IMG/VR virus record: IMGVR_UViG_3300025316_001100
Length of the DNA: 64,000 bases
Reading direction: 5' to 3' (one strand)
Origin: a virus
Taxonomy: Duplodnaviria; Heunggongvirae; Uroviricota; Caudoviricetes
A program made the position numbers and the translations under genes. The number at the start of each line of letters is the position of its first letter. Within the stretch, counting starts at the first letter, position 1. The notes beneath the pieces are model-generated. The model was not told the origin of the DNA and did not search any database. It saw nothing but the letters and a program-made list of their open reading frames with translations. Below, piece by piece: positions 20,670 through 62,218 of this stretch.

Positions 20670-21893
20670 TTAACTGCTTGTCAATGCGACAAGACTTACA
20701 TTAGAACTCAATTGGCTATCCCCTGCATTCCGCAGGTTCATCATTCTTAAACCTTCGTTTAAGATATTCTTACTCGCATTGTAATCTCTATCGTGAGGCG
20801 TAAAACAATTAAAACAAGTCCAATGGCGTTCTTCCCCTAAATCACGATATCTCCATCCACATTCACTACACAATTGGGAAGATGGAAACCATCGGTCTAT
20901 TTTAATTATTTGTCTTCCATACCACTTTGCTTTATACATCAACTTTTGAACAAATGACGAGAAACAACAATCATTTAATTGGCGATGAAGTAATTTTTCT
21001 CTCCATCGCTTCTCTTTCCTTTTTTCTGGGTCTTTGTTTTTCAGCATTGATTTTACACTTAAATCTTCAATAACTATGACTTGGTTCTCATCAATTATTT
21101 TTTTAGATGTTTTGTGTAAGAAATCTTCACGAACATTACTTTGCTTTACTTTCAACTTATTTAACGCTAATTTACTTTTGTTTCTACGATTGCTTCCTTT
21201 AACTTTTCTGCTAACGGAACGAGCAAGGAAGCGTTCTCTTGACTTATATTTTGTAGTAGCAGGACGAGGATTAGCGAACCTTTCATCCTCACTACTTACA
21301 ATATATTGAACATTAAGGTCTAAACCTACAACTTTAATTACTTTGGGTAATTCTTCTATTTCTTTGACACAAGTAATAGAAACAAAGTATTGATTGGCTT
21401 TGTTTTTGCTAATTGTGGCAAACTCAATTTCACCTTCTAATGGTCGGTGAAGGATGATTGGGATGCCTTCAAGGAACTTCGGTATGACTAATTTATCATC
21501 AATCACTTTAACATTTTGTGGCACACGGAATGACTGCTTGCCGTGTCTTTTCTTAAATCGTGGGAAACCACACTTACCTTTGAATTTGCCTTGTTTCTTT
21601 AACTTACATTTTTCAAAGAAATTATCAAAGCCATTCTGTAATTGGCGTGCTGCGTATTGAAGTGATTGACTACCGACTTCCTTCAACCATTCGTATATTT
21701 GTTTCAATTCAGGAATACTTGTGGCGTTGTCATAATAATTTAATGACTTATGTTCTTCACCTTTATGAGCATCAATGCGAGAACGGAGAAACTGATTATA
21801 CAAAAACCTTACGCAACCAAAGTGTTTGGCTAAAAGTATTTGTTGTTGCTCCGTTGGATACAACCTATATTTATAGGTAAATTGATGCTTCAT
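20670..21893 (-). CDS. tnpB: TnpB/OrfB transposase-associated RNA-guided nuclease family protein (407 aa)
   Basis: N-terminal YKYRLYPTEQQQILLAKHFGCVRFLYNQFL (the OrfB helix-turn-helix signature); C-terminal CSECG...WTCFNCF...DRDYNASKNI (Zn-finger plus the RuvC-III motif). Confidence 0.8.
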   Translation of the reverse strand: MKHQFTYKYRLYPTEQQQILLAKHFGCVRFLYNQFLRSRIDAHKGEEHKSLNYYDNATSIPELKQIYEWLKEVGSQSLQYAARQLQNGFDNFFEKCKLKKQGKFKGKCGFPRFKKRHGKQSFRVPQNVKVIDDKLVIPKFLEGIPIILHRPLEGEIEFATISKNKANQYFVSITCVKEIEELPKVIKVVGLDLNVQYIVSSEDERFANPRPATTKYKSRERFLARSVSRKVKGSNRRNKSKLALNKLKVKQSNVREDFLHKTSKKIIDENQVIVIEDLSVKSMLKNKDPEKRKEKRWREKLLHRQLNDCCFSSFVQKLMYKAKWYGRQIIKIDRWFPSSQLCSECGWRYRDLGEERHWTCFNCFTPHDRDYNASKNILNEGLRMMNLRNAGDSQLSSNVSLVALTSS

Positions 21894-41705: not shown

Positions 41706-42926
41706 TCAGGCTGCCTTCACTTCAAAATCATCGGGATCATAATTACCGAAATCCAGGGCTGGAATGTCGATCTTCACCGCATCTTCGCCCAGATTCGGAA
41801 TACCCCGCTTGTTCAACTCATCAATACCCGCCATCGTCAGCGAGTAGCCCTGACTGGTCACTGCAACCAATGCAGGTTCATTCTCCGTAGCTGTCAGCAA
41901 TGGTGGCATCAGGTAATGAATCAATTCTTCCTCTTTGCAACCTGCATAAAGGATCAATCGACTACGTGGGATTGCTCCCTGTTGGCCCAATGCCGCCAAT
42001 ACCGTAATTCGCTGTCGGGTCATGCCATACGGATCAATGTCATTGTCACGGGCCACAGCCGCCGCAACCTGTTCCCAGGATACTGCGCCCTTATGGCTCT
42101 GAAGTTCGTACTCGGCCCGCATGTCAACAGCAAACGCCAGGGCTTCACGTGGAACCCGCCAGCAATACTTTGCTACCAACTTGCAAACGCTCATATCCCA
42201 ATCGGGATTTGCACGACGCACGATCTCTGCAATTTCATCCCGGCCATACAGATTCAAATAAATCTTTCGGAACCGGGTATCAAAAGCATCAAACAATAGA
42301 CCACGATCCGTGGTCGCAATAATCCAGCAAACCCTACGGCAATCGGCAGTCCAACCATCGCCCAAAGACAGCATACCGTCTTTCGGTTCGGTTGCCTTCA
42401 ACAATGCCTGCACAACCGGATTCGGCAAAGCATGTACTTCGTCAATCAATGCCACGGTTGGCGGAATGACAAAGACCCTATTCTCATCTGGGTTTAATCG
42501 CAAGGTGATGGGATCACCACCACTTTGTTCATAAGCCACACGATCAAGAACATCGGCAAATGCTTCAACAATATCCAGAGCATTTTGAACTGCCTTCGGC
42601 TGAATCTCAACATAAGGCAACAAAGTCGTCTGGCCGAACAATCGTGCCAGAGTCGTCTTACCCGCCGATGAACCACCGATCAAAGAAAACTGCTGATCGC
42701 CACCAGCATGGTTTTCACGGCCCCACATTTGGTACGCCGCCCGGCTCAATCGCCGCTTCGCCTTGTCGTTGCCCACAAACTTGGACAACGGGCAATCGGG
42801 ATTCTGATGGCTAGTCTTCCACTGACGCTGCTCGACCGACAAGCCAGTATTGAACAACAACTGGTTCTGTGGGCCGGGCTCTCGCACCAGCAAAGGACTC
42901 AAGATTGTTTTGTTACCTTTACGCAT
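41706..42926 (-). CDS. RuvB-like AAA+ ATPase (406 aa)
   Basis: Walker A GGSSAGKTTLARLF; Walker B VALIDEVHAL; sensor and arginine region IIATTDRGLL..FDTRFRK; C-terminal winged-helix segment resembling the RuvB domain III pattern. Confidence 0.55.
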   Translation of the reverse strand: MRKGNKTILSPLLVREPGPQNQLLFNTGLSVEQRQWKTSHQNPDCPLSKFVGNDKAKRRLSRAAYQMWGRENHAGGDQQFSLIGGSSAGKTTLARLFGQTTLLPYVEIQPKAVQNALDIVEAFADVLDRVAYEQSGGDPITLRLNPDENRVFVIPPTVALIDEVHALPNPVVQALLKATEPKDGMLSLGDGWTADCRRVCWIIATTDRGLLFDAFDTRFRKIYLNLYGRDEIAEIVRRANPDWDMSVCKLVAKYCWRVPREALAFAVDMRAEYELQSHKGAVSWEQVAAAVARDNDIDPYGMTRQRITVLAALGQQGAIPRSRLILYAGCKEEELIHYLMPPLLTATENEPALVAVTSQGYSLTMAGIDELNKRGIPNLGEDAVKIDIPALDFGNYDPDDFEVKAA

Positions 42927-48259: not shown

Positions 48260-48467
48260 AATTCCTCCAACGGTTATACTAATAGAATAGTTAAAATCTT
48301 AAAAATTATTTCACATAAAAAATGCAGAATATGTTACCTCCCTACAAAAACTCTACCACCCATTCGTTAAGAAATGTTTTGTTGTTAAAACAAAAAATCC
48401 CAAACAGCCCGATGAATATTTTAGCAGCCTACGATTTTTCTCCAATGCATGCCCAATCTTTACAGAA

Positions 48468-49001
48468 ATGCGAAAAAAATGGTACAAAGAACCTTTTGTT
48501 CGCAGAAGCAAAAAAATAGTCCCATCTGATTTAATTTTAACATGGAGAATCGCTGCATTGTGGGCCTGCGATGATGGTACTAATAATCATAAAATACGCA
48601 CGTTTAGATTGTCCACTAATTGTTTTTCTGAAACTGATGTTTGTTTTCTCATTACTAGATTAGATAATGACCTTGGTGTAAAAGCACGCATGAATATGGA
48701 ACGTAATCAACCAACAATTACCATGTGCGGAGCAAATGCTGAAAAATTTATAGATGGCATCAAACGCTACATACCGTGGTCTTGCCTGCAATACAAATTA
48801 AAGTGGCGTCCGAGTCTTAACCCAAACACTTCTGGCATTATTGGCGTAAGTAAGGTTGGTAGATATTGGCAAGCTCATATTATGATAAATGGAATTAAAA
48901 AATTCCAACACTTTAATACAAAAGAAGAAGCAATTCTAATACGAAAGGAATGGGAAAATGATAAATTATTGGTTAGAGAAAGACAAAGCAGAACAAGCTA
49001 A
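48468..49001 (+). CDS. Putative homing endonuclease with a LAGLIDADG-like motif and a C-terminal AP2 DNA-binding domain (177 aa)
   Basis: IAALWACDDGTNN (LAGLIDADG-like); C-terminal GIIGVSKVGRYWQAHIMINGIKKFQHFNTKEEAILIRKEWE matches the phage AP2 domain pattern; plus strand against a minus-strand background. Confidence 0.45.
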   Translation: MRKKWYKEPFVRRSKKIVPSDLILTWRIAALWACDDGTNNHKIRTFRLSTNCFSETDVCFLITRLDNDLGVKARMNMERNQPTITMCGANAEKFIDGIKRYIPWSCLQYKLKWRPSLNPNTSGIIGVSKVGRYWQAHIMINGIKKFQHFNTKEEAILIRKEWENDKLLVRERQSRTS

Positions 49002-49227
49002 AGCAGTCCACTCATTTACAATCACCACAGGTGCAAACCACTATTGTGGGTGTGGAAATGTAACCTATACTTGCGGTGTGGGAACATATCATTGTGGCAA
49101 TATTATAATGAATGTACTTCCTTCTTGCGTGCCTTGTGGAAGCGGTTCAGTTTATTGTGGCAACGTGCCTGTTTATGGCAATTGTAGCTTTACATATTCT
49201 GAAAACGTTTGTAGCATTACCTGTTAA
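48958..49227 (+). CDS. small Cys/Gly-rich protein (89 aa)
   Basis: ORF followed by a bidirectional terminator; repeated CG(N/S)V motifs; uncertain. Confidence 0.3.
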   Translation: MINYWLEKDKAEQAKAVHSFTITTGANHYCGCGNVTYTCGVGTYHCGNIIMNVLPSCVPCGSGSVYCGNVPVYGNCSFTYSENVCSITC

Positions 49228-49237
49228 TTAAATAAAC

Positions 49238-49270
49238 AAACCCACCCGGCCAAAGGCCGGGTGGGTTTTA
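49238..49270. terminator. Bidirectional Rho-independent terminator (ACCCACCCGGCC-AAA-GGCCGGGTGGGT, T-runs on both sides)
   Basis: Perfect GC stem between the converging plus gene (end 49227) and minus gene (end 49297). Confidence 0.6.
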
Positions 49271-49296: not shown

Positions 49297-50178
49297 TTAG
49301 TTTGCAGGAACACCAACGGTTTCCTTTTTGACTTCGGTCGGACCAAGAGCCTTTTCGACCGGAACAAAAGTAATTTGTCCAACTTCACCGTTGCTATTGC
49401 CAAGAGCAGATTGAGAAATGCCCGCCAGTCGGTCAAACTCATTACTCGCATTAGTATCTAATGCATACTTGAGGAATTCATCTTCCGATTGCTTTGCCTC
49501 GACACCGGCCAATTTCTGGCTGATCTTAGCTTCAGAAGTAATACGCCGACGCATATCCTGCAATCGTTGAAGTGTTTCGCCACTGCGACTTTGACTGATA
49601 CCAGAAATGATATCATTCGCTTCCTTTTCTTGCTTGGCGATTTCAACATCGGCTACAGTTGCGTCCTTCTGTTCTTTGATTTTGCCGAGTTCACGAATCA
49701 TGCCTTGCATGGTCACTTCGTAACCCGTCAACTGTTTGGCCGATTCTTCCAACTCATCGTGAAGACGAGAAGCTTCTGTCTTCTTGCTGCTCAAGGTTGA
49801 AGTGGCATCTTTGAAACCCCCAGAGCAACGCAAATAATCTGCATCCACCTGAATTTCTGCATCGCTCTTACCTTGAGACTTTAGCAATTGTGCTCGCTTT
49901 TGTCCCATTGCCAAAGCACCGGCCATAATCTTTTCCTGCTTGGCAACATCCTGGTCTAGTTCCGCAAGACGATCTTGCTTCTTCAACTGAACAGACATAA
50001 TGCCAGCTACCGCTCGTTTTACTTCTTGGATACGAGTGCGATGTTCGGTTTCCACAGCATCAAACTGTGCCCGAATCGCTGTCGGACTGGACTCCCAAAC
50101 TTGAGACCAGTAATCGAAATTTCCGGTCAGAGTGTAGAGAATCGCACGAATCAATCTACCAAACGCCTTAAACATCAC
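49297..50178 (-). CDS. PspA/IM30 (Vipp1)-like coiled-coil protein (293 aa)
   Basis: The N-terminus MMFKAFGRLIRAILYTLTGNFDYWSQVWESSPTAIRAQFDAVETEHRTRIQEVKRAVAG parallels the PspA N-terminus ([40 protein letters not shown]...). The remainder is long heptad coiled-coil. Confidence 0.4.
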   Translation of the reverse strand: MMFKAFGRLIRAILYTLTGNFDYWSQVWESSPTAIRAQFDAVETEHRTRIQEVKRAVAGIMSVQLKKQDRLAELDQDVAKQEKIMAGALAMGQKRAQLLKSQGKSDAEIQVDADYLRCSGGFKDATSTLSSKKTEASRLHDELEESAKQLTGYEVTMQGMIRELGKIKEQKDATVADVEIAKQEKEANDIISGISQSRSGETLQRLQDMRRRITSEAKISQKLAGVEAKQSEDEFLKYALDTNASNEFDRLAGISQSALGNSNGEVGQITFVPVEKALGPTEVKKETVGVPAN

Positions 50179-50202
50179 TCAACTCCTTCTACTTGGTTAA
50201 AC

Positions 50203-51159
50203 CTATTGAGAACCTAAAACTCTATCACACTTTACAGAACTTGTCAATCCTTGATAAAGAGTGAAAAACGCTCCATTGAAAGGAAAATCAAAACACTCAC
50301 CTTCTTGTTTTATTGGAAATAATACCGTACCTCTCTTAATGCAAGCCACCGGCACCAATTCCTTGCTAATACTGTCATAGACAGACATGCCCACCAAAGC
50401 ACCGCCAGGAGTTTTCAAAACATGCAAATCACAATTTGCAATTAACCCCTCAATTTTCACTGCTGAATGTTCTATTCTCGGCACTTCCAATTCTTTTCTG
50501 CGATTGACGATTAAATTCGTTAATGCTCGCTTGCCAATTTTATCTTTATTGGCATCAAACAATTGTCGCAATTCTCTAATTGCATCCAAAGACAAATTAC
50601 ATGATGCTTTTAGATTATTGCAAATTGCACACATGCTCTGATAATTTGAGAATTCATTTCTGCCGCCTATTGATGCTGGACAGATATGATCCTTAGTCAT
50701 CAGCACCAATTCTCCATTTTCTTCTGCATACAGATTGAAATGTGGAGCTTTATCATTTGGGTGCATCTCCAATAGCATTTTTGTTCCTTCAATGCCACAG
50801 GCTGCACAATTACGATTGGCGTGAAAGACAAAGTAACGGTGCGAATTCATTCGTACTAAATATTGTTTCTTACCAGCCGCATATTCTTTTTTTGTATCTG
50901 TGTGGGTAATGAAAGGCAACACTTCTTCTGGAGTAAACTCGCCCAAAACAAGCCTATATGTTTTTTGTTTCCGCTGAGCAATTTGTGAAATTCTAGTTAA
51001 AGTGAATGGCGGAACAAGAATGTTGCCTAGCTGCTCGGCAGCCAACTTCATTAAATCTTGTCCTGCTCCCTCTATCTCAAAATCCCACTCGACGATTGCT
51101 CTCGCCTTATATCGTTTCGTCATGATTGCATTAAGTGTATCAAAAATCCTAAACCCCAC
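50203..51159 (-). CDS. HNH endonuclease-domain protein (318 aa)
   Basis: CAACGIEG....DHICPASIGGRNEFSNYQSMCAICNNLK is an HNH motif. Confidence 0.5.
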   Translation of the reverse strand: MGFRIFDTLNAIMTKRYKARAIVEWDFEIEGAGQDLMKLAAEQLGNILVPPFTLTRISQIAQRKQKTYRLVLGEFTPEEVLPFITHTDTKKEYAAGKKQYLVRMNSHRYFVFHANRNCAACGIEGTKMLLEMHPNDKAPHFNLYAEENGELVLMTKDHICPASIGGRNEFSNYQSMCAICNNLKASCNLSLDAIRELRQLFDANKDKIGKRALTNLIVNRRKELEVPRIEHSAVKIEGLIANCDLHVLKTPGGALVGMSVYDSISKELVPVACIKRGTVLFPIKQEGECFDFPFNGAFFTLYQGLTSSVKCDRVLGSQ

Positions 51160-51530
51160 AACAACAATGGACGCAGAAATAAATTGCCCAGTAATATACC
51201 GCCCCTATAGGCTCTTTTGTTTATATCCTGAGAATCATTTCCTTCTGCAAATCGCTCGAACGTACTACCGAACAATCCTGCAATAACCACTAATCCAATT
51301 GCTACAGTTAAATGAGGCGTAGCGACACCAAACGCTGGAGTAACAAACCACATCCACAATTTTCTTAGCACAAATCCTTTTAACACATAAGCCAAAGCAA
51401 ACACTACCGCTACAAAACATCCCTGCTGTAGTATACTTCCATAATTTGCTTTTACTATTTCGGATACTGGCTGATCCTTACATATTGGGTCCATACATAC
51501 CGCCTTTTTGATATAAGAGTGATGTAACAC
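51120..51530 (-). CDS. integral membrane protein (136 aa, 3-4 TM helices)
   Basis: Hydrophobic ORF. Confidence 0.5.
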   Translation of the reverse strand: MLHHSYIKKAVCMDPICKDQPVSEIVKANYGSILQQGCFVAVVFALAYVLKGFVLRKLWMWFVTPAFGVATPHLTVAIGLVVIAGLFGSTFERFAEGNDSQDINKRAYRGGILLGNLFLRPLLLWGLGFLIHLMQS

Positions 51531-51568
51531 TGATTATATCATAGACGGTAATAATAGCCAAGTAAAAA

Positions 51569-52192
51569 TTACTGTACCATTTTCCACGGTGGCATAAATG
51601 GATAATCAAAAAATCTACCAGTCTCCTGATCAATTGAATTGCGAACATCACGAATGGGACAACCGGGTGGAAAACCCTTTACCGGCCATTCATTCAAAAA
51701 TCCATTAAATGTCACAAGCCAATATTTGCCTCGGAAAAATGCGAATTGATTTGTATAATTCTTCTGCCACCAGGGGTCCACAATATAGCAAGAAGTAGAC
51801 ATAAGCCGTACCCTTTCACCCCAAGGTTGCTCATGACCACTCTCCACTAAAAATCGATAACTGTCCCCCTCTGTGTCGTGACGGAAGGCATCGTGAACAC
51901 CGAAAATAGTAGACCAATCATCACACACATAAAACAATTCGTAGGAGTCATATTCAACTCCTCCCAATTTATTCAACAATACTTTAGCATGAGGATTACG
52001 TGGTCTGCCCGTTTCATCCAACGGGATCGGCACCTCTCGCAATTTGTTTCTTGGATAAGCGATTTCAATATCTAATCGCCATTTTCCTTCAGGACAGGGA
52101 TAGTCCGCACATCGCTCTGCTCTCCATCGTTCCCAATTCTGGTAATGAAGATACATTTTCCCATCCGGTCCTATTGTCTCGAATGGTTGCAT
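51569..52192 (-). CDS. hypothetical protein (207 aa)
   Basis: ORF. Confidence 0.5.
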   Translation of the reverse strand: MQPFETIGPDGKMYLHYQNWERWRAERCADYPCPEGKWRLDIEIAYPRNKLREVPIPLDETGRPRNPHAKVLLNKLGGVEYDSYELFYVCDDWSTIFGVHDAFRHDTEGDSYRFLVESGHEQPWGERVRLMSTSCYIVDPWWQKNYTNQFAFFRGKYWLVTFNGFLNEWPVKGFPPGCPIRDVRNSIDQETGRFFDYPFMPPWKMVQ

Positions 52193-52201
52193 GTTAGGGC
52201 C

Positions 52202-52330
52202 TCATTTATCTTTACGTTTCCACCAACTTGAAATCAATTTGTCCCACACAAAACTCACCGTTGCTCCTAAAATAGCCAGTGTTACTGTTGTAATGACACT
52301 AGCCGTAGTAAGAAAATTACGTTTTTTCAT
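52202..52330 (-). CDS. small membrane protein (42 aa, MKKRNFLTTASVITTVTLAILGATVSFVWDKLISSWWKRKDK), not in the track
   Basis: RBS GGAGCAATTATG; one TM helix. Confidence 0.4.
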   Translation of the reverse strand: MKKRNFLTTASVITTVTLAILGATVSFVWDKLISSWWKRKDK

Positions 52331-52463
52331 AATTGCTCCAAGAAGTTAAAGGCAGCCGCCCGGCCGTGAATGCGATTACTCGCAGGGCCAAGCTGAGTCG
52401 GCGGTTCACCCCCGCACACATTCACAGGGAATTGATTTCACGACCGGACAGTTGCCTCTTTAT

Positions 52464-54068
52464 TTACTTCCCAGACTGCACATTTATCACAGGGGTAATC
52501 CCCTTGAGATCCGTCCAAAGAGTACCAGGGCCAGAATAAATCATCTTCAAATCAATGTCATCTGGCAATCCTGTAGCAAATTGCCACTGCGTATAAGCCG
52601 ATGGATCACCAAAAGCCTTAACGGCCAATTCAAACAACTGTGCCTTGGCTTCCTGCTGCAACCGTTTGGAAGCGTTCTCGGCCTCACCGATAGCGACCAC
52701 CTTTTGAGCTTCGATATCGGCCACCTTCCTATCAACAGCAGCAATCATCTTCTCCGTTTCAGCGGCCGTAGTATCAGCAGTCTTTTGGCCTTCGGCATTG
52801 ACATTGGCAACCAATTTCTTGGTGCCTTCCGTAATTTTTGCCGCTTCCAATTTAACAGTCTGTTCGGCAGCACGCAACTTCATTTCAGTCTTGGCTGTAG
52901 TCGCTTCCTGGGTACGTGTCAAAGCCAATTCGTCGGCAATGTAGCCCTTTTGAATAGGTTCTCGCACGTCCTTCGGAATGTAAATGTGACGCACTAAACC
53001 GTACAATAAACTAATGTTCTTTTCTTTCAACACTTTATTGAAAGATTTATCAACATCCTCTTGGAATTTTTGTCGGCTATCACCCACAAGCAATTCCACG
53101 GCTCCCAATCTCGATCCATTGTTACGACAAATAGATTCGCATTGAGGAATAATCACTTTGCTTTCCACAGCGGCCAAATTACCAAAACGACTGATAATGT
53201 CTGGGCACTGATCAGGCAGCACTCCCCACACAGCACTGAAGTCCATTTGAATCTTGAATCCATCGCTCGAAGGGAATGTAATGCCTGTATTCACTACTGG
53301 CATACATTCTCCGCTGGCGTCAACTAGAACTTGATTCTGCTGGTTGACTTGCTTCTCGGTCGAAATCTCTTTGGCATTATAACCAATAGAAACAATATCG
53401 ATTTGCATCTCACGGGGATTGATCGGATAAAGGCCAGGAGGCAATGTATCCTTTTGAATTCCCGCTTTACGACCAAGAGCAGTGTTGTCTGTCAAATACG
53501 TGACCACGCCAACATAACCAGGGTTTATATGCACCCAACCAGCGTGCTTCATTTGTGGTATTTGTTGAGAGCCAACATTCGTCTCTTCAGTTCTAACGAC
53601 CTTTACTTCGTAACCATACGGATTGATACGATACCGTCCAGGTCCGAATGTACGTCGCAAAATACCCTTTTGTGTAGTGGCCCCAAGATCACCATCAACC
53701 AAAAATTGACCACTAGGCAAATCGTTGCCCAATTTACTGGTAACAATGGCCAATTCACCGGGCTTCACCACAACGTCGTCAACCACTGTTCGTTCCCACC
53801 AAACGGGACAATAAAAATGACGACCAGGGCCGGGCATGTCACACTTTACACCAATCTCACCCTCTTTGGCAAAATTGCCAGCAGCAGCATACTTGTTGCC
53901 CAACGTAAAAAACAACGGTCCCTTATACCGCAACATAAGACTTTGACCGGGTTCAACGTAAACTCGATTAACAGTCCAGTCGAAGAAAAAGTAAGAGCAG
54001 AACAGGGCAATTACGCCCAGGCCCACACTAGCAAGCAAACAACCCTTGGTTTCATCTCTCAAACTCAT
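52464..54068 (-). CDS. SPFH/band-7 (flotillin/HflKC-like) membrane protein, paralog B (534 aa)
   Basis: N-terminal TM helix; internal PG-YPINP repeats; C-terminal Ala/Glu/Gln-rich coiled-coil (AETEKMIAAVDRKVADIEAQKVVAIGEAENASKRLQQEAKAQ). Paralogous to 54084..55628. Confidence 0.5.
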   Translation of the reverse strand: MSLRDETKGCLLASVGLGVIALFCSYFFFDWTVNRVYVEPGQSLMLRYKGPLFFTLGNKYAAAGNFAKEGEIGVKCDMPGPGRHFYCPVWWERTVVDDVVVKPGELAIVTSKLGNDLPSGQFLVDGDLGATTQKGILRRTFGPGRYRINPYGYEVKVVRTEETNVGSQQIPQMKHAGWVHINPGYVGVVTYLTDNTALGRKAGIQKDTLPPGLYPINPREMQIDIVSIGYNAKEISTEKQVNQQNQVLVDASGECMPVVNTGITFPSSDGFKIQMDFSAVWGVLPDQCPDIISRFGNLAAVESKVIIPQCESICRNNGSRLGAVELLVGDSRQKFQEDVDKSFNKVLKEKNISLLYGLVRHIYIPKDVREPIQKGYIADELALTRTQEATTAKTEMKLRAAEQTVKLEAAKITEGTKKLVANVNAEGQKTADTTAAETEKMIAAVDRKVADIEAQKVVAIGEAENASKRLQQEAKAQLFELAVKAFGDPSAYTQWQFATGLPDDIDLKMIYSGPGTLWTDLKGITPVINVQSGK

Positions 54069-54083
54069 GATTAGGTTCCTTTC

Positions 54084-55628
54084 TTAATTCTTAGAGGGTG
54101 TAATAGGAGTGTTCGCCGCTGGAGTCGTAGTCCATTGACGTTTGGAATCAAACGTCCTGAATACATCCATGAGCGGACTATCCTGTGTATTGACCATCAT
54201 GCCCTTAAAGGCTGGGGCCAACTTCTTGTAAAGCGTCCAACGAGCAAATTCATTACCGTTATTTCCAAACGCCGCAATAGATCGCTTCCAACCAGCAGCC
54301 TCGGCTTCATTAGCAAACATAACAACGTCTGCCTTGGCTTTGCCAGTGGCCATAATGGCTGCCGCTTGATCTTTAGCTGCAAGCAATTGTTGCTCGGCAA
54401 CAGCCAATCGTTTTTGGGCTTCAATTACAGCCACTTCCTGCCGTTGCAAAGCTTGTGTAGTTACAGCAACCACAGCTTGGTCAGCAGCAACTTTAGCTTG
54501 CTTCTGCAACACCGTCGCCTTTTGTACGGCCAAATCCTGCTCCGAAGCTTGCTGCGCAATCTCTTTTGTAAATTGCGATTCTTGCTGTAAAGCGATTTGT
54601 CGTCTACGAACCGGATCAGCAATTTGTTCCGGTGGCCGAATGGTTGTAATCAATGCCTGGATCACTTCGATGCCTTGTGCGCCGCAAGTAACCTTCATTG
54701 CCGTTTGAAAATCTTCTTGGAACGTCACACGGGTATCCCCAGTAATAAATTCTTTACCAGAATGGTTTGATCCCTTGAGACGAGTATAAGCACGTGCATT
54801 GGGTAGAATAACTTTGGCAATTACCTCTTCATCCAATGCCTTACCACTACGCTCTTCATTGAAAAGAATGTAGGTAGTCGGTGCAGTCTCGGGCTTCACC
54901 CTAAATTCAATAATACCCTCAAGACTGACCCAAAAACCATCTCTAGTCGGGAAGCCAATATCTTGCAAATTGTATCGTTGACTTCGACAATCAATCAAAC
55001 GAGTTTCTTGCACATACGGATTCAAATAATATGTGCCCGGCTCCAAACAATCAGCTTGTACTCCACGACAATCCTTGGGCGACAAAATTTGATTGGCTTT
55101 TTCAGGCATCGTTGCGGCCAAATTGGTAAGCAACCCCTTATACCCAGCAGGAATACTTACGGGATCATGCAATTCAATCATTTCTGCATAATCATTTCTG
55201 ACAGGCGTAGTGCCTTGAATAAAACCATTGATTGGATATCGTCCAGGTCGCAATACTTCAGGAACAATACCCTTTTGCGTTTCTTTCCATGCAATCAATT
55301 CACCGGCTGCAAGGTCTTCGCCATAAATACGAATGCGAACACCCAACTTGCCTTCGGGAATTTCAACCTGCGGCACCACTTCAGAATCCCAAACATAAGG
55401 ATTGTAGTAATACCGACCTTCAGTAAGTACATCCTTCTGAACACCCTTATAATCTTGAGTGGGGGCAATAATCATGCCCGGCTCCAGATCATTGCCAGTC
55501 TTTTTCATCAGAATGGCCATGTGCTTGGCAGGCACGTCAATCCGCATCTCGGAATACATCCACCAAGGCGTAATCACAACAAACGCTACAAGAATCGCAA
55601 TCCAAATCCAAATCTTTGAGGAGTCCAT
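54084..55628 (-). CDS. SPFH/band-7 (flotillin/HflKC-like) membrane protein, paralog A (514 aa)
   Basis: N-terminal TM helix; SPFH-like core (FPTRDGFWVSLEGIIEFRV...); flotillin-like AQ/AEA coiled-coil (KQAKVAADQAVVAVTTQALQRQEVAVIEAQKRLAVAEQQLLAAKDQAAAI...ANEAEAAGW). Confidence 0.5.
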   Translation of the reverse strand: MDSSKIWIWIAILVAFVVITPWWMYSEMRIDVPAKHMAILMKKTGNDLEPGMIIAPTQDYKGVQKDVLTEGRYYYNPYVWDSEVVPQVEIPEGKLGVRIRIYGEDLAAGELIAWKETQKGIVPEVLRPGRYPINGFIQGTTPVRNDYAEMIELHDPVSIPAGYKGLLTNLAATMPEKANQILSPKDCRGVQADCLEPGTYYLNPYVQETRLIDCRSQRYNLQDIGFPTRDGFWVSLEGIIEFRVKPETAPTTYILFNEERSGKALDEEVIAKVILPNARAYTRLKGSNHSGKEFITGDTRVTFQEDFQTAMKVTCGAQGIEVIQALITTIRPPEQIADPVRRRQIALQQESQFTKEIAQQASEQDLAVQKATVLQKQAKVAADQAVVAVTTQALQRQEVAVIEAQKRLAVAEQQLLAAKDQAAAIMATGKAKADVVMFANEAEAAGWKRSIAAFGNNGNEFARWTLYKKLAPAFKGMMVNTQDSPLMDVFRTFDSKRQWTTTPAANTPITPSKN

Positions 55629-57213: not shown

Positions 57214-58347
57214 TTAACCAGGAATGTAAGCAGTCTGCATGGTCAATATATTGCCAGGACTGTCTTTGGCGTTAAGTAAATAAGACGTAGGATCAAGCAA
57301 ATAATCCCATTTGGGAGCATCTAATTTCCAAGAATGAGAAGCCGATGTTCTTTCCCGTTCGTACAACTCCACATGGAGCATCGCACGGGAATGGCCGGGA
57401 ACGTCGGGACGTTCCCGGCCTTCTTTCACAACTGGTGTTACCGTGCCAATAAAATCACCAGCCCGCACAATATCGCCGGGTTTCCATTTTTCATAAACTT
57501 GGATTTCGCCATAACACACAATTCCACTGGGGCCTTCGACTAAAACGCAATCCGTATCGTTCCACCAAGGCGAATTATCCTGCGGTCCTGTAAACATTTC
57601 CTTGCCAACCACTCGGCCATCTTCCACCGCTTGTACAAAAGTGCCTTGGGCACAATAAAGATCCACACCAGTATGATGGGAGTGTTTACGTGCAAATCCA
57701 AAAGCCCCTGGATGATAACCACAAGGAATGCCTGGGCAGTTGGTCAATGGAAATCTCCATCGCAAACAATCTTTTGTTTGCTGTACGATGTCACTAATGT
57801 TGGCCATCGCACCATTACCTTCATCGTTGCAAGCCAGCATCTTAGTTTGTGGATCGACTCGTTTCCAACCCATGCCAAACAAAGTACGCATATTTTTTTG
57901 CGTAATCTCGTTTTGAAGCATCATGGTATTCATAGCCGGTGCATAAATGATCGGCCGTGTATAATCCCATGCTGCAACCGTGCTAGTTAAAATATTATCC
58001 GCCAATCCATTGGAAACCATACCCAACGTATTGTATGTGATTGGTGCAATGACCAATACCCCTGCCCATTTTCTTAGACCGATGTGAACTACCGGATCAC
58101 CCTTCTTCTGCCAAACCTTCGTGCCATGCGGCGTAGTCCATTCATTAAAATCAGTGAATACTTGAATATCTTTGTGCCCAGCAATATATGCCTGTGCATT
58201 TTCGTCGTGAAAGATGTCATTTTCAAAAAAATAACGACCCTTGTCGGTAGTGACAACTCTTACGTTGCCAAGCTCCCGAAGGGTAACCGCTAATTTTTTA
58301 GTAAGTGTCGCTGCAACACTACCGGTAACACCAAGTAAAATATTCAT
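57214..58347 (-). CDS. HFCD-family flavoprotein (phosphopantothenoylcysteine decarboxylase CoaC-like) fused to a C-terminal degenerate M23/LytM peptidase-like domain (377 aa)
   Basis: N-terminus MNILLGVTGSVAA..., VLVIAPITYNTLGMVSNGLADNILTS..PAMNTMM...ACNDEGNGAM (CoaC/Dfp N-domain pattern). C-terminus HHTGVDLY..GTFVQAVEDGRVV...GDFIG..AMLHVELYE...DPTSYLL (M23 fold, HxH degenerated to MLH). Confidence 0.65.
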   Translation of the reverse strand: MNILLGVTGSVAATLTKKLAVTLRELGNVRVVTTDKGRYFFENDIFHDENAQAYIAGHKDIQVFTDFNEWTTPHGTKVWQKKGDPVVHIGLRKWAGVLVIAPITYNTLGMVSNGLADNILTSTVAAWDYTRPIIYAPAMNTMMLQNEITQKNMRTLFGMGWKRVDPQTKMLACNDEGNGAMANISDIVQQTKDCLRWRFPLTNCPGIPCGYHPGAFGFARKHSHHTGVDLYCAQGTFVQAVEDGRVVGKEMFTGPQDNSPWWNDTDCVLVEGPSGIVCYGEIQVYEKWKPGDIVRAGDFIGTVTPVVKEGRERPDVPGHSRAMLHVELYERERTSASHSWKLDAPKWDYLLDPTSYLLNAKDSPGNILTMQTAYIPG

Positions 58348-58614: not shown

Positions 58615-59400
58615 TCATTTCAAGCTTTCTCGATGTCTTAATCCAGCAGCCGCTCCCGTAACTACCACTTTTGCTAAAAAATTTGGATCACTTATTTGCT
58701 GGTGATAAACTTGTGGCTCATTAGGACATGCGGCACAACCGAATACATCATCTTTCTCATCGGCATACACCAACGTCAAACAATGCGCATTGTTTTTCAT
58801 ATCCCTTAAATCGTTTGCAACAATCATATCGCAATGATTGCTACGAATACTATGTTGAGCCGCTTCAATCAATTGTTCATCTGTAGAGTCCACCAACAGT
58901 TTGAATCCGACCAAATATGTTCGTGGATACCACGATTTAACTTGGCTAATGATCTTAGGCAAAGCTACCAAAGGAATGTTCATTTCAGCTACACTCGACC
59001 GCATCTTGCCCTCTACGATAGCTGCTGCACCATAGTCCGATACAGCCGCCGCAAGAATTACAATATCTGGCCTGCCGCCCATTACTGCTGCCTTTAACTG
59101 TATGTGATAATCATCAAAGGTGCGATATTCAAATTCCCAATAAGACGTGTGATGGGCTGCATACAATTCATAAATTTCACCTGTCCGCTGCATGGCTACT
59201 GCAAGGCTCTCACGATCAAAATTTACCCTAGTAGAAAATGGAGACTTTGAATCTTTGGCCTTTAGAAATGTTACCTTGTGCCCGGCCTTCAATGCTTCGG
59301 TCGCAATCTTAGCACCAAATGTTCCACTGCTCATGTTCGTAATATCACGGACACGATCAATTGAAATTTTTGTCCCACCAGATGTAATTAAAATGTTCAT
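58615..59400 (-). CDS. coaB: Phosphopantothenate-cysteine ligase (CoaB domain, 261 aa)
   Basis: ILITSGGTKISIDRVRDITNMSSGTFGAKIATEALKAGHKVTFL matches the Dfp C-domain motif ([34 protein letters not shown].VTLV). Confidence 0.7.
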   Translation of the reverse strand: MNILITSGGTKISIDRVRDITNMSSGTFGAKIATEALKAGHKVTFLKAKDSKSPFSTRVNFDRESLAVAMQRTGEIYELYAAHHTSYWEFEYRTFDDYHIQLKAAVMGGRPDIVILAAAVSDYGAAAIVEGKMRSSVAEMNIPLVALPKIISQVKSWYPRTYLVGFKLLVDSTDEQLIEAAQHSIRSNHCDMIVANDLRDMKNNAHCLTLVYADEKDDVFGCAACPNEPQVYHQQISDPNFLAKVVVTGAAAGLRHRESLK

Positions 59401-60306: not shown

Positions 60307-61347
60307 TTAGATTCCAAAAACATCGCAAAATTCCTCTGCGATATCTAGGATCTCTTCTTTACGATCCAGACCATCGATCAAATGTTGGGGGAAGATACTC
60401 ATGCCATTTACAGCACCAAGCATCGCACCCACAATTGCTCCATTGGTATCGGCATCGCCACCCACGCTAACTGTATCATACAAAGTCTCAATGCCATGCG
60501 GGTTACGCAAAAACATCATATAGGTCAAAGGCATATTCCAATAGCAGCAAAATCGCTGACCACCTTCGCCCATAAACTCTTCAACGATCCTGGGAATATT
60601 ATACTCTCGATACGCTTCTAGTAAAGCAAATCGCTGAGTAATATCATCAGTTTCGGGATCGGTGTTCAACCGACCTTCGGCACACCATTGCTTACCACGT
60701 AGGCCCGCACGTTTGATGGTAGCAGCAAATGCATCTGAATCAAACGGATCAGCAGCAAGACAATAAAATGCCGCCATAACTTGAGCAAATGCTGAACACA
60801 ATGACATTTCAGTGTAGTGCGTCATGAAATTCAAATTCTTGACAAACTGAAATGCTTCCAGAGCAATCTTGTCACGTTCAACCGGTTCTGGATTGTTGCC
60901 TTTAATCAATTGATAAAGAACAGCCGATACCGGACTAATCTTCATGGGCAAACCATTACCCTTGCCCCGGCCTTCATTCTTCAATCCACTCTTTGACCAA
61001 TGCACGCCATTAGCCAAACTACGGATAGCTTCTCTGGTTGTTCCACCCCAAGCCTTTGAATTTTCTTTGAGAGCTTCGATATGCGTTTCAGCCTGGGCGT
61101 CCATATCAAAGCTTTTGGCTTTAATCAGGCCCTTGGCGACAGCCAATGTCAATTGAGTGTCATCTGATGTACAACCGGCTTTCACGCCATTATGCCACTT
61201 ATGTCCAGTAGGATCTTGATATGTTGTAATGCGACCGTACTTTTCTTTTATTTGATCCGCAGACCAACATTCTACCGGCAATCCAAGACTGTCGCCAACA
61301 GCCGTTCCAATAAAAACAGCTTTTACTCTATCACGCATTGATACCAT
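60307..61347 (-). CDS. ADP-ribosylglycohydrolase family protein (346 aa)
   Basis: N-terminus FIGTAVGDSLGLPVE (G..GDALG.P.E motif); C-terminus VSVGGDADTNGAIVGAMLGAVNG (GGDTDT...G.L.GA motif). Confidence 0.75.
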   Translation of the reverse strand: MVSMRDRVKAVFIGTAVGDSLGLPVECWSADQIKEKYGRITTYQDPTGHKWHNGVKAGCTSDDTQLTLAVAKGLIKAKSFDMDAQAETHIEALKENSKAWGGTTREAIRSLANGVHWSKSGLKNEGRGKGNGLPMKISPVSAVLYQLIKGNNPEPVERDKIALEAFQFVKNLNFMTHYTEMSLCSAFAQVMAAFYCLAADPFDSDAFAATIKRAGLRGKQWCAEGRLNTDPETDDITQRFALLEAYREYNIPRIVEEFMGEGGQRFCCYWNMPLTYMMFLRNPHGIETLYDTVSVGGDADTNGAIVGAMLGAVNGMSIFPQHLIDGLDRKEEILDIAEEFCDVFGI

Positions 61348-62218
61348 GATTTATCTCCAATAACGTTTGATAAGCCTTGAGTTTTCTCGCCAAACAAACA
61401 GTGGCGTTTTTATATAAAAAATTACACACTGTATTGATTTGCCTATTACCATGCACCCTAAGAGTAAAGTTGTTGTTCTTTCTGCGTTTGTGCCGCTTGT
61501 TGATTTCGTAACGCACTCCCAGTGTGTCGAAATGACTTCCTATTGCCAGCAACATTTCCTTGGTGGATACTATAGAAAAACATGCTGCACGACTCTTGCG
61601 TTGTTTACGCTTATAGAATGTTAAAGATCCATCTCCGTCAAAGTACCCACGAATAAAATGATGGTGTAAACACTGCGGTATTTCTGGAAATTTCAAAACA
61701 AACGTCTTGCGTGGCACACACCCCAACTTTTCCAAATCAGCACACAGCTTCTTACTCACCACATAAATTGCCACCCTATTCTGAGTATTTTTCTTCTTGG
61801 ATTTATATTCCTTTACATTCACGTGTCCGCACAACAACCAACCCGATATTATTTCGAGTATATCTCTGTCCTGTTTGGCCAATGAGACTTCCAGCCGTCT
61901 ACCGCTATTACATCCATCGGCAAACAAAAATCCCAAACAATACGCCTTCTCTTCCGAGTCAATTGATTCAAAAAACGTGTCGCATACCGGAAATTTTCTA
62001 CGTGTCACCTCTTGCGGTATCACTTCTAGGCCCAATCGCCTAAATCCATGCCGCAAAGCATAAATAGATACCTTACGTGTTTTAGCAAAACGTGACAATG
62101 GCCACGTTTTCAAACCCATATAATCTTCATAAAGACTATGGATTTTTTCATCTGAGTACATTTTTGCAGTCATGCTATTATATAGTAGCGTGACTGCAAA
62201 AATTATCTGCGTATACAC
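61331..62218 (-). CDS. LAGLIDADG-family homing endonuclease (two-motif, 295 aa)
   Basis: AYCLGFLFADGC (motif 1) and FIRGYFDGDGSL (motif 2); overlaps the ARH gene start by 17 nt. Confidence 0.75.
   Translation of the reverse strand: MYTQIIFAVTLLYNSMTAKMYSDEKIHSLYEDYMGLKTWPLSRFAKTRKVSIYALRHGFRRLGLEVIPQEVTRRKFPVCDTFFESIDSEEKAYCLGFLFADGCNSGRRLEVSLAKQDRDILEIISGWLLCGHVNVKEYKSKKKNTQNRVAIYVVSKKLCADLEKLGCVPRKTFVLKFPEIPQCLHHHFIRGYFDGDGSLTFYKRKQRKSRAACFSIVSTKEMLLAIGSHFDTLGVRYEINKRHKRRKNNNFTLRVHGNRQINTVCNFLYKNATVCLARKLKAYQTLLEINHGINA

Follow-up and report, generated by a model that had tools for sequence, protein, structure and literature searches.

In Bacillus subtilis, the pspA-ydjGHI operon (renamed samGHI; bioRxiv 10.64898/2026.02.06.704340) encodes the SPFH protein YdjI, which is required to bring PspA to the membrane (PMC8581546). 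Several independent couplings of PspA and band-7 genes have been catalogued by Ravi et al. 2024 (PMC11237479), and the PspA/SPFH pairing was also noted by Makarova et al. 2024. Here we describe a block of seven genes on a 64,000-nucleotide stretch of viral DNA (Caudoviricetes; IMG/VR record IMGVR_UViG_3300025316_001100), referred to below, at its full length, as the window. In this block two tandem SPFH paralogs, SPFH1 and SPFH2, which are closely related to genes of the Planctomycetota, are followed on the same strand by a gene for a 293-residue protein that resembles PspA.

An earlier note, made from the letters of this DNA and its open reading frames (ORFs), did not recognise the combination as a described system. 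For cells this was wrong, given the published pspA-ydjGHI and PspA/band-7 operons (PMC8581546, PMC11237479). The block is like pspA-ydjGHI in bringing together, in one operon, a gene of PspA type, SPFH/band-7 genes and genes for small membrane proteins. It differs in that two membrane-anchored SPFH paralogs of another subfamily take the place of the one soluble YdjI with its zinc ribbon, and no homologs of YdjG or YdjH (TPM, zinc-ribbon) were found in the block by Pfam. In addition, the block is phage-borne, the bulk of its SPFH proteins may face the periplasm, and its PspA-like protein comes from a different branch, which stays below the family threshold.

As in a neighbourhood described by Ravi et al. 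2024, cellular relatives of the 293-residue protein are encoded in an operon with VWA, solute-binding/OmpA, ABC and AAA genes. The gene in the window has lost that context, including the AAA gene, and follows the SPFH pair instead. The published band-7 partners (transmembrane + band-7 + flotillin with YqiJ/YuaF, and CesT/Tir) were not found here. HflK/HflC, prohibitin 1/2 and flotillin 1/2 are likewise pairs of SPFH paralogs encoded side by side. Each of these proteins combines an N-terminal anchor with an SPFH domain and a long helical part at the C terminus, to which a presumably helical stretch corresponds in the block. When compared with HflK/HflC, the SPFH proteins of the block are about 100-200 residues longer, have a triplicated N-terminal sub-element and show no linkage to FtsH.

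Single SPFH ORFs have been annotated in the T4-like phages 44RR, Aeh1 and RB43 since 2006 (PMC1524935) and in Vi01-like phages since 2011 (PMC3220722), and a pspA-like gene beside terD was reported in 2026 for the Jug huge phages (PMC12880540). The Vibrio phage Kuja gene product Kuja_1010 shares the N-terminal repeat region of the pair (28% identity over residues 13-219); besides Kuja, no phage in INPHARED matched the SPFH pair at the protein level, and none did at the DNA level. The known phage SPFH ORFs (T4-like, Vi01-like, Kuja, PHROG 200) are single, uncharacterised genes, none of them reported beside a PspA-family gene. We found no description in the literature of a host-derived tandem SPFH pair on phages, of the triplicated N-terminal element or of the placement of such a pair with a PspA-family gene on a phage. 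The block opens no new category, since PspA/band-7 coupling and phage-borne SPFH ORFs are already on record.

The gene block and its SPFH pair

The ORF list contains seven consecutive intact ORFs on the minus strand between positions 49297 and 55628. In order of reading, they encode SPFH1, SPFH2, a 42-residue peptide, a 207-residue protein, a small membrane protein, an HNH endonuclease and the PspA-like protein. The extent of the block agrees with the earlier note, which spoke of six genes but itself listed seven. The intergenic gaps, from SPFH1 to the PspA-like gene, are 15 nt (between SPFH1 and SPFH2), 133, 9, 38 and 24 nt. A hairpin resembling an intrinsic terminator (49238-49268, minus strand; 14-bp stem with 10 G-C pairs, T-rich tail) begins 29 nt past the stop codon of the PspA-like gene and likely marks the end of the transcription unit; the coding strand switches directly downstream from it. 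Because of the short gaps, an ATGA overlap between the membrane protein and HNH genes, the terminal hairpin and the strand switch, the block resembles the end of one transcription unit.

The genes of the block are real and under purifying selection, with dN/dS values of 0.04-0.16 against orthologs in related contigs. The values were 0.044 for SPFH1 and 0.065 for SPFH2 (against a relative 84-85% identical), 0.07 for the HNH gene, 0.16 for the membrane protein, 0.035 for the 207-residue protein and 0.06 for the 42-residue peptide. The PspA-like protein showed no amino-acid change at a dS of 0.13 against a strain variant 92-94% identical, and the 42-residue peptide showed a single change at a dS of 0.165 relative to the strain variant L100.

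SPFH1 (54084-55628, minus strand; 514 aa) and SPFH2 (52464-54068, minus strand; 534 aa) matched Pfam Band_7 (PF01145) with 97.5 bits (E 1.2e-27) and 72.5 bits (E 5.9e-20), far above the cutoff of 23.6, in agreement with the SPFH/band-7 assignment of the earlier note. SPFH1 also matched phrog_200 (E 8e-15). The two proteins have the same architecture and share 26% identity over 436 aa (E 3e-34), and are thus paralogs, as had been proposed. Each has a single N-terminal hydrophobic segment (residues 1-26 in SPFH1, residues 7-33 in SPFH2), which corresponds to the transmembrane helix predicted before.

The PG-YPINP repeats pointed out in the earlier note are real. Profile-profile comparison identified three tandem units of about 55-65 aa in SPFH1 (probability 90-97.5%, E 7e-12 to 1.5e-6) and the same pattern in SPFH2, with E values of 7e-6 between the first and second units and 1e-8 between the second and third. 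The repeats are a triplicated first sub-element of the SPFH domain, the third unit being the start of the Band_7 domain. The presumably helical C-terminal stretch of about 110 residues is enriched in Ala, Gln, Glu and Lys, and contains almost no Pro or Gly. The composition ascribed to an Ala/Glu/Gln coiled coil was thus found, but in a crude test the 3.5-residue (heptad) hydrophobic periodicity of this stretch was not above that of shuffled sequences.

The charges around the anchor were counted in 49-75 homologs. Lys + Arg amounted to 2.0-2.4 before the anchor versus 1.4-1.5 after it, and Asp + Glu to 0.2-1.0 versus 1.3. By the positive-inside rule, this suggests that the N terminus lies inside and the bulk of each protein in the periplasm, as in HflKC.

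SPFH1 has more than 1000 homologs, the top 120 at 54-99% identity, and those that carry names come from Pirellulaceae, Planctomycetales and Planctomycetota metagenome-assembled genomes. Pairs of 515 + 533 aa and 513 + 531 aa were found in the same order on L005, a 4.2-Mb contig, and L006, a 117-kb cellular contig, at 70-73% identity to the window for SPFH1 and 70-74% for SPFH2; the label Planctomycetota for the cellular contigs rests on the names that the sources give to other homologs. In 59 of the 61 fetched loci that were long enough to tell, SPFH2 comes after SPFH1, the median distance between them being 37 nt; apart from the two genes themselves, the fetched loci share no conserved neighbouring family. 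For these two reasons we regard the pair as a self-contained two-gene unit of Planctomycetota. The phage copy comes from that lineage, probably acquired as a single two-gene segment. Synonymous sites are saturated between the phage and cellular copies and the G+C content of the pair falls inside the range of the window, so the transfer from host to phage was not recent.

The pair also occurs, at 47-59% identity, on the IMG/VR contigs L008, L009, L010 and L011 (527, 430, 355 and 60 kb); the CoaB and CoaC-M23 genes that lie upstream from it in the window do so in L008 and L010 too. A neighbour-joining tree scatters the phage copies over at least three positions among their cellular counterparts. 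This tree, which is only indicative, suggests that the pair has been exchanged repeatedly between cells and phages. A search of genome contigs with a single protein and strict peptide patterns yielded one locus.

On a further IMG/VR contig of 29.7 kb (L012, 918-2938), the SPFH1 homolog ends at about residue 243, where a tnpB gene abuts, and SPFH2 is missing. The TnpB protein is 56% identical to that of the window (20670-21893, minus strand). It looks as if a TnpB element had disrupted the SPFH pair in this contig.

The window is very likely of phage origin and part of a huge phage. It is packed with short, mostly co-oriented ORFs and encodes LAGLIDADG and HNH endonucleases, TnpB, CoaB, a CoaC-M23 fusion, a polynucleotide kinase/phosphatase (PNK), a NUDIX protein, an ADP-ribosylglycohydrolase and families known only from PHROG. 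The protein cluster of the 293-residue protein has a member on a contig of 373,808 bp; related contigs of 527, 430 and 355 kb are classed as viral in IMG/VR; and a relative of the 207-residue gene is located on L019, a 177-kb contig with a terminase. No virion genes were seen within the window, and no nucleotide match to it was obtained among 50,697 deposited phage records (INPHARED DNA search). The host of the phage probably belongs to the Planctomycetes/Planctomycetota. To our knowledge, almost no phages of this phylum have been cultured, and its membrane organisation is atypical. If the host assignment is true, the 70-74% identity of the SPFH pair to host genes would provide a sequence handle on Planctomycetota phages.

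The PspA-like protein

The last gene of the block (49297-50178, minus strand) encodes 293 aa; on near-identical contigs it is called as 292 aa, with the start at 50175. The earlier note had likened the N terminus of the product to PspA/Vipp1. The AlphaFold2 (AF2) model, built with 21 homologs, has helices at residues 3-29, 32-101, 113-196 and 200-242, followed by a disordered tail, with pLDDT above 90 over residues 40-170. This is the alpha0 / hairpin (alpha1/alpha2+3) / alpha4 layout of PspA and Vipp1, the hairpin being found also in unrelated coiled coils. Residues 1-18 are amphipathic, with a hydrophobic moment (muH) of 0.61 that was matched by 0.1% of shuffles; the values in all 21 family members were 0.47-0.67. 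Pro32 is invariant in the family, and the motif F..(I/L)GR...(K/R)A...(D/N)P is one that we take, as a lead only, to resemble the start of PspA/Vipp1. When the model was compared with the PDB by Foldseek, the two best matches were Vipp1 structures (7o3w and 6zvr, about 250 columns), yet at an E value of 7e-3 only.

Within the family, PF04012 was matched by 13 of 22 members and was the commonest and strongest family match, all of it below threshold (best 29.1, another 26.5, against 33.9). One member is named PspA/IM30 by NCBI.

In cells, relatives of the PspA-like gene are part of an operon of about ten genes. Genes for an SBP/OmpA protein (SBP, solute-binding protein), a VWA protein, an OmpA protein and a coiled-coil protein with two transmembrane segments precede the PspA-like gene, and genes for a binding lipoprotein, an ABC permease, an ABC ATPase and an AAA protein of about 600 aa follow it. 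Such loci were found in L016, L017 and L018 (whole), L003 (10001-15761) and L001 (7072-15634); L003 keeps only the PspA-like gene, the AAA gene and a gene for a 995-aa protein. The AAA protein is of the classic clade (Cdc48/VAT-like), its best PDB relatives being VAT, Cdc48 and p97 (E 2e-25). A 595-kb "uncultured phage" (LR756511.1) carries most of the operon, without an AAA gene within 24 kb. The operon matches, by its published description, the PspA/AAA+/ABC/PBPB-OmpA neighbourhood reported for a PspA clade by Ravi et al. 2024 (PMC11237479).

Three candidates that came up around this gene were rejected. The pairing of the PspA-like gene with a classic AAA gene is not a new finding, as it is already contained in Ravi et al. 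2024 (PMC11237479). A 250-aa neighbour in the cellular operon, considered as a second PspA paralog, proved not to be one. An AAA gene of the window itself (41706-42926) was considered as a Vps4/Cdc48-like partner; it is unrelated to the AAA protein of about 600 aa in the cellular operons, is RuvB-like by eye and matches a clamp-loader PHROG.

Some results weigh against the assignment to the PspA family. The 293-residue protein of the window has no Pfam match, three of the four PF04012 alignments of its relatives that were checked are out of register, and profile and single-sequence HMM searches of PDB sequences returned coiled-coil noise and no PspA. A comparison by hhalign with a three-sequence PspA alignment that includes E. 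coli PspA gave an E value of 0.01 and a probability of 4%, which is not significant. Nor was the comparison with one PspA significant, and both templates are too thin to count as negative evidence. A scan of IMG/VR with the alignment of the PspA-like family found nothing. The amphipathic helix, the hairpin and the operon context thus agree with the proposed PspA/Vipp1-like nature of the protein, whereas the PF04012 threshold was not reached. We consider it probable, though well short of certain, that the protein belongs to the PspA superfamily.

Linkage of the two units and possible functions

A relative at 57-63% protein identity has the gene order CoaB, CoaC-M23, PNK, SPFH (515 aa), SPFH (540 aa), three small genes, HNH (298 aa), a 129-aa gene, PspA-like (292 aa) and GT9. 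In another relative, at 84% identity, SPFH1, SPFH2, a 58-aa gene and a 210-aa gene are kept in order. A canonical PspA gene, whose product is anchored by a transmembrane segment, lies 1.8 kb beyond the SPFH pair in L010, a huge-phage contig, and immediately behind it in the cellular contig L006. These two PspA proteins pass PF04012 (50.2 and 47.8 bits, against 33.9) and are mutually homologous (E 2e-32). Given the 57-63% relative, L010 and L006, two branches of the PspA family adjoin the SPFH pair in three independent settings.

The block, a set of co-oriented accessory genes ending at a terminator, combines two host-type membrane units. In the reading that we prefer, and to which we give an even chance, a host-type SPFH hetero-oligomer and the PspA-like protein would together stabilise or reorganise the host membrane during infection. 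Like HflK/HflC, prohibitin 1/2 and flotillin 1/2, SPFH1 and its presumed partner SPFH2 would build a large ring- or cage-shaped complex that the N-terminal helices hold in the cytoplasmic membrane, and the bulk of this assembly would lie on the periplasmic side as in HflKC. The soluble PspA/ESCRT-III-like protein would attach to the inner membrane face by its amphipathic N-terminal helix and, as known for PspA/Vipp1, form polymers where the membrane is under stress. Both units would be expressed together during a long and demanding infection. The phage might benefit by keeping the barrier and the proton-motive force, or by organising membrane patches or the quality control of membrane proteins. 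The HNH protein would be a selfish endonuclease, and the 42-residue, 207-residue and polytopic proteins would be variable passengers or accessory factors.

That a phage borrows host genes for membrane maintenance is credible. If the proposal is true, membrane-scaffold and membrane-repair proteins would join the host functions carried by huge phages. Close relatives with and without the SPFH pair, together with the two PspA branches carried by different phages, provide a natural test of whether an SPFH cage and a PspA polymer cooperate. A bolder version, which we regard as a long shot, is that huge phages of Planctomycetota carry a membrane-shaping kit (SPFH cage and PspA polymer) with which the host membrane is rebuilt, for example into a compartment for replication or assembly. 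In that case the repeated, apparently independent capture of the SPFH pair, twice with a PspA-family gene, would represent a strategy specific to the host phylum.

The adjacency could also be coincidental: a hypervariable region of a huge phage genome may have accumulated accessory genes that act independently of each other, if at all, and form no module. We hold this to be rather unlikely, although several results speak for it and against joint function. In the closest relative by identity of the PspA-like protein (85%), the PspA-like gene comes after PNK and a 112-aa gene, and both the SPFH block and CoaBC are missing. Neither PspA type was found in the flanks of any of 80 metagenome loci with the SPFH pair, many of which are on short contigs, and L008, L009 and L011 have no PspA gene within 8-10 kb of the pair, which itself lacks any other conserved neighbour. 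In cells, the PspA-like family belongs to another operon (VWA/OmpA/ABC/AAA), which contains no SPFH genes, and the AAA partner is absent from the window. With the bulk of the SPFH proteins in the periplasm, there would be no direct contact with a cytoplasmic PspA. In addition, the 207-residue family is found elsewhere without SPFH genes, and strain variants gain or lose a 160-aa gene and a LAGLIDADG gene.

Against coincidence stand the order from the SPFH pair to the PspA-like gene, which is kept at about 60% protein identity, and the three independent settings in which two PspA branches adjoin the pair. Linkage of PspA and band-7 genes is, moreover, recurrent in bacteria (PMC11237479, PMC8581546), and the genes of the block are co-oriented, with short gaps and a single terminal terminator. 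The single module envisaged in the earlier note therefore agrees with the synteny in the 57-63% relative but not with the self-contained nature of the SPFH pair, the very large family to which the HNH gene belongs, the occurrence of the 207-residue gene without SPFH genes or the absence of the SPFH block from a close relative. Likewise, PspA and SPFH genes proved to be linked in the 57-63% relative, L010 and L006, but not in any of the 80 metagenome loci. Support for a functional connection of PspA with the SPFH pair is thus only partial.

A second alternative, which we consider improbable, gives the PspA-like protein a secondary role. The SPFH pair would act as an HflK/HflC-like regulator that encloses or titrates the host FtsH, so that phage proteins are protected or quality control is redirected. 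In favour of this, two anchored SPFH paralogs lie in one operon with the N-in, bulk-out topology predicted as for HflKC, and JGI labels many SPFH1 homologs "HflC". The nearest solved sequence found in the PDB search is prohibitin 1 (E 2.6e-4), a partner of m-AAA/FtsH-type proteases. However, the HflK equivalog TIGR01933 gave 14.1 bits for SPFH1, against a cutoff of 159.4, and no match for SPFH2; the pair is not an HflK/HflC equivalog, and the HflKC likeness drawn in the earlier note fails in this respect. With about 515-535 aa and the N-terminal element in three copies, the proteins are also built differently, neither an FtsH gene nor an FtsH-related neighbour was found in the window or among the conserved neighbours of about 90 loci, and the topology comes from the positive-inside rule alone.

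A role of the block as a cassette for superinfection exclusion or anti-phage defence (abortive infection), an option that the earlier note had offered, is very improbable. Its membrane proteins do lie in an accessory region beside a nuclease gene, and in Vi01-like phages the SPFH ORF adjoins an annotated superinfection-exclusion gene (PMC3220722). However, of the six proteins scanned against PADLOC-DB 2.0, SPFH1, SPFH2, the PspA-like protein, the 207-residue protein and the polytopic membrane protein had no match, and the HNH motif gave two weak ones, with E values of 0.007 and 0.035, to type II restriction enzymes. The HNH family is like ordinary phage HNH endonucleases, and the SPFH pair is a housekeeping-type cellular unit found in varied contexts other than defence. 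The option thus gained no support.

That the large paralogs are virion or structural proteins and the 293-residue protein a generic coiled coil is hardly tenable, given the strong Band_7 matches and the cellular membrane proteins as nearest relatives, the conserved amphipathic N terminus and PspA-type operon context of the 293-residue family and the lack of any structural PHROG or Pfam match; of the outcomes that the earlier note had named as fatal to its view neither clearly appeared, no virion fold being found for the paralogs and the model of the 293-residue protein having a helical hairpin.

Intervening genes and other features of the window

The four genes that separate the PspA-like gene from the SPFH pair differ between relatives and form no conserved core. 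The HNH gene (50203-51159, minus strand) encodes 318 aa as listed. Its start is most likely Met13 (ATG at 51123, giving 306 aa), since homologs align from about residue 15 of the query and near-identical contigs are called as 306 aa; this start creates the ATGA stop/start overlap with the membrane gene. The nuclease motif recognised in the earlier note lies above the Pfam thresholds (HNH_5, 34.0 bits versus 27.5; HNH, 27.8 versus 21.4), and the protein matches 20 PHROG HNH families. The family is diverse and comprises 3776 representative clusters at E<=1e-3, as is usual for phage HNH endonucleases of the free-standing kind. The gene is present in all near-identical variants, is missing with the whole block from one relative and, in the relative at about 60% identity, has a shifted position with respect to the small membrane gene. 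The HNH protein is probably a free-standing selfish endonuclease of the homing type and a passenger in the operon.

The small membrane gene (51120-51530, minus strand) encodes 136 aa when read from a GTG codon. A start at the ATG at 51494, giving 124 aa, is more likely, and this is the form called in the near-identical contigs L100-L102. Hydropathy predicts three transmembrane segments, in line with the polytopic protein described before. The only match was to phrog_2169, "membrane protein" (E 6.6e-7), and no partner of the NfeD or YqiJ/YuaF type was recognised in it by a Pfam search, the one search made for it.

The 207-residue soluble protein (51569-52192, minus strand) belongs to an uncharacterised phage family. 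No match was found in Pfam, PHROG, NCBIfam or PADLOC, and its 14 homologs are all unnamed. The AF2 model is beta-rich (pLDDT 77, pTM 0.75) and has no fold match in the PDB. In the terminase-bearing contig L019 its homolog is distant from any SPFH gene, and the protein is probably not specific to this block. The 42-residue peptide (52202-52330, minus strand) has a single hydrophobic, presumably membrane-spanning segment at residues 6-30; gene callers report it in near-identical contigs as well, and L015 has a 58-aa gene at the same position.

An extra gene, not in the window, was observed in L100 (1126-1608) and L102 (942-1424). It encodes 160 aa with a lipoprotein-like signal, MKYIISFLFLSLFVGC, and is located between the homologs of the 207-residue gene (window 51569-52192) and of the membrane gene (window 51120-51494). 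The block is thus variable among strains.

Beyond the SPFH pair, a CoaC-type flavoprotein fused to Peptidase_M23 (377 aa) is encoded beside a CoaB-like gene (57214-58347 and 58615-59400, both minus strand). The two genes also occur in L008 (2061-4891), L010 (7254-8989) and L014 (3898-6248), and in several huge-phage contigs they are conserved, with 45-81% identity, upstream from the SPFH pair. The joining of an enzyme of the coenzyme A pathway to a peptidoglycan-peptidase fold is an odd combination.

On the other side of the block, beyond the terminator, an 89-aa Cys/Gly-rich ORF lies on the opposite strand (48958-49227, plus strand). It contains the motif CGCGNV..CGVGTYHCGN..CGSGSVYCGN and corresponds to called genes of 87-89 aa in strain variants. 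A LAGLIDADG_2 ORF (48468-49001, plus strand) lies within a segment of about 677 bp (48282-48957) that is missing from the strain variant L100. The nucleotide identity to L100 is 99.6% on the far side of this segment and only 92-94% over the SPFH/PspA-like block. The arrangement looks like a presence/absence polymorphism of a homing endonuclease with a divergent tract adjoining it.

Another LAGLIDADG gene (61331-62218, minus strand) overlaps the end of the region of the ADP-ribosylglycohydrolase gene. In the 84% relative a LAGLIDADG gene also adjoins the ADP-ribosylglycohydrolase gene, on the opposite strand (L014, 669-1457). Selfish endonucleases are abundant in this region.

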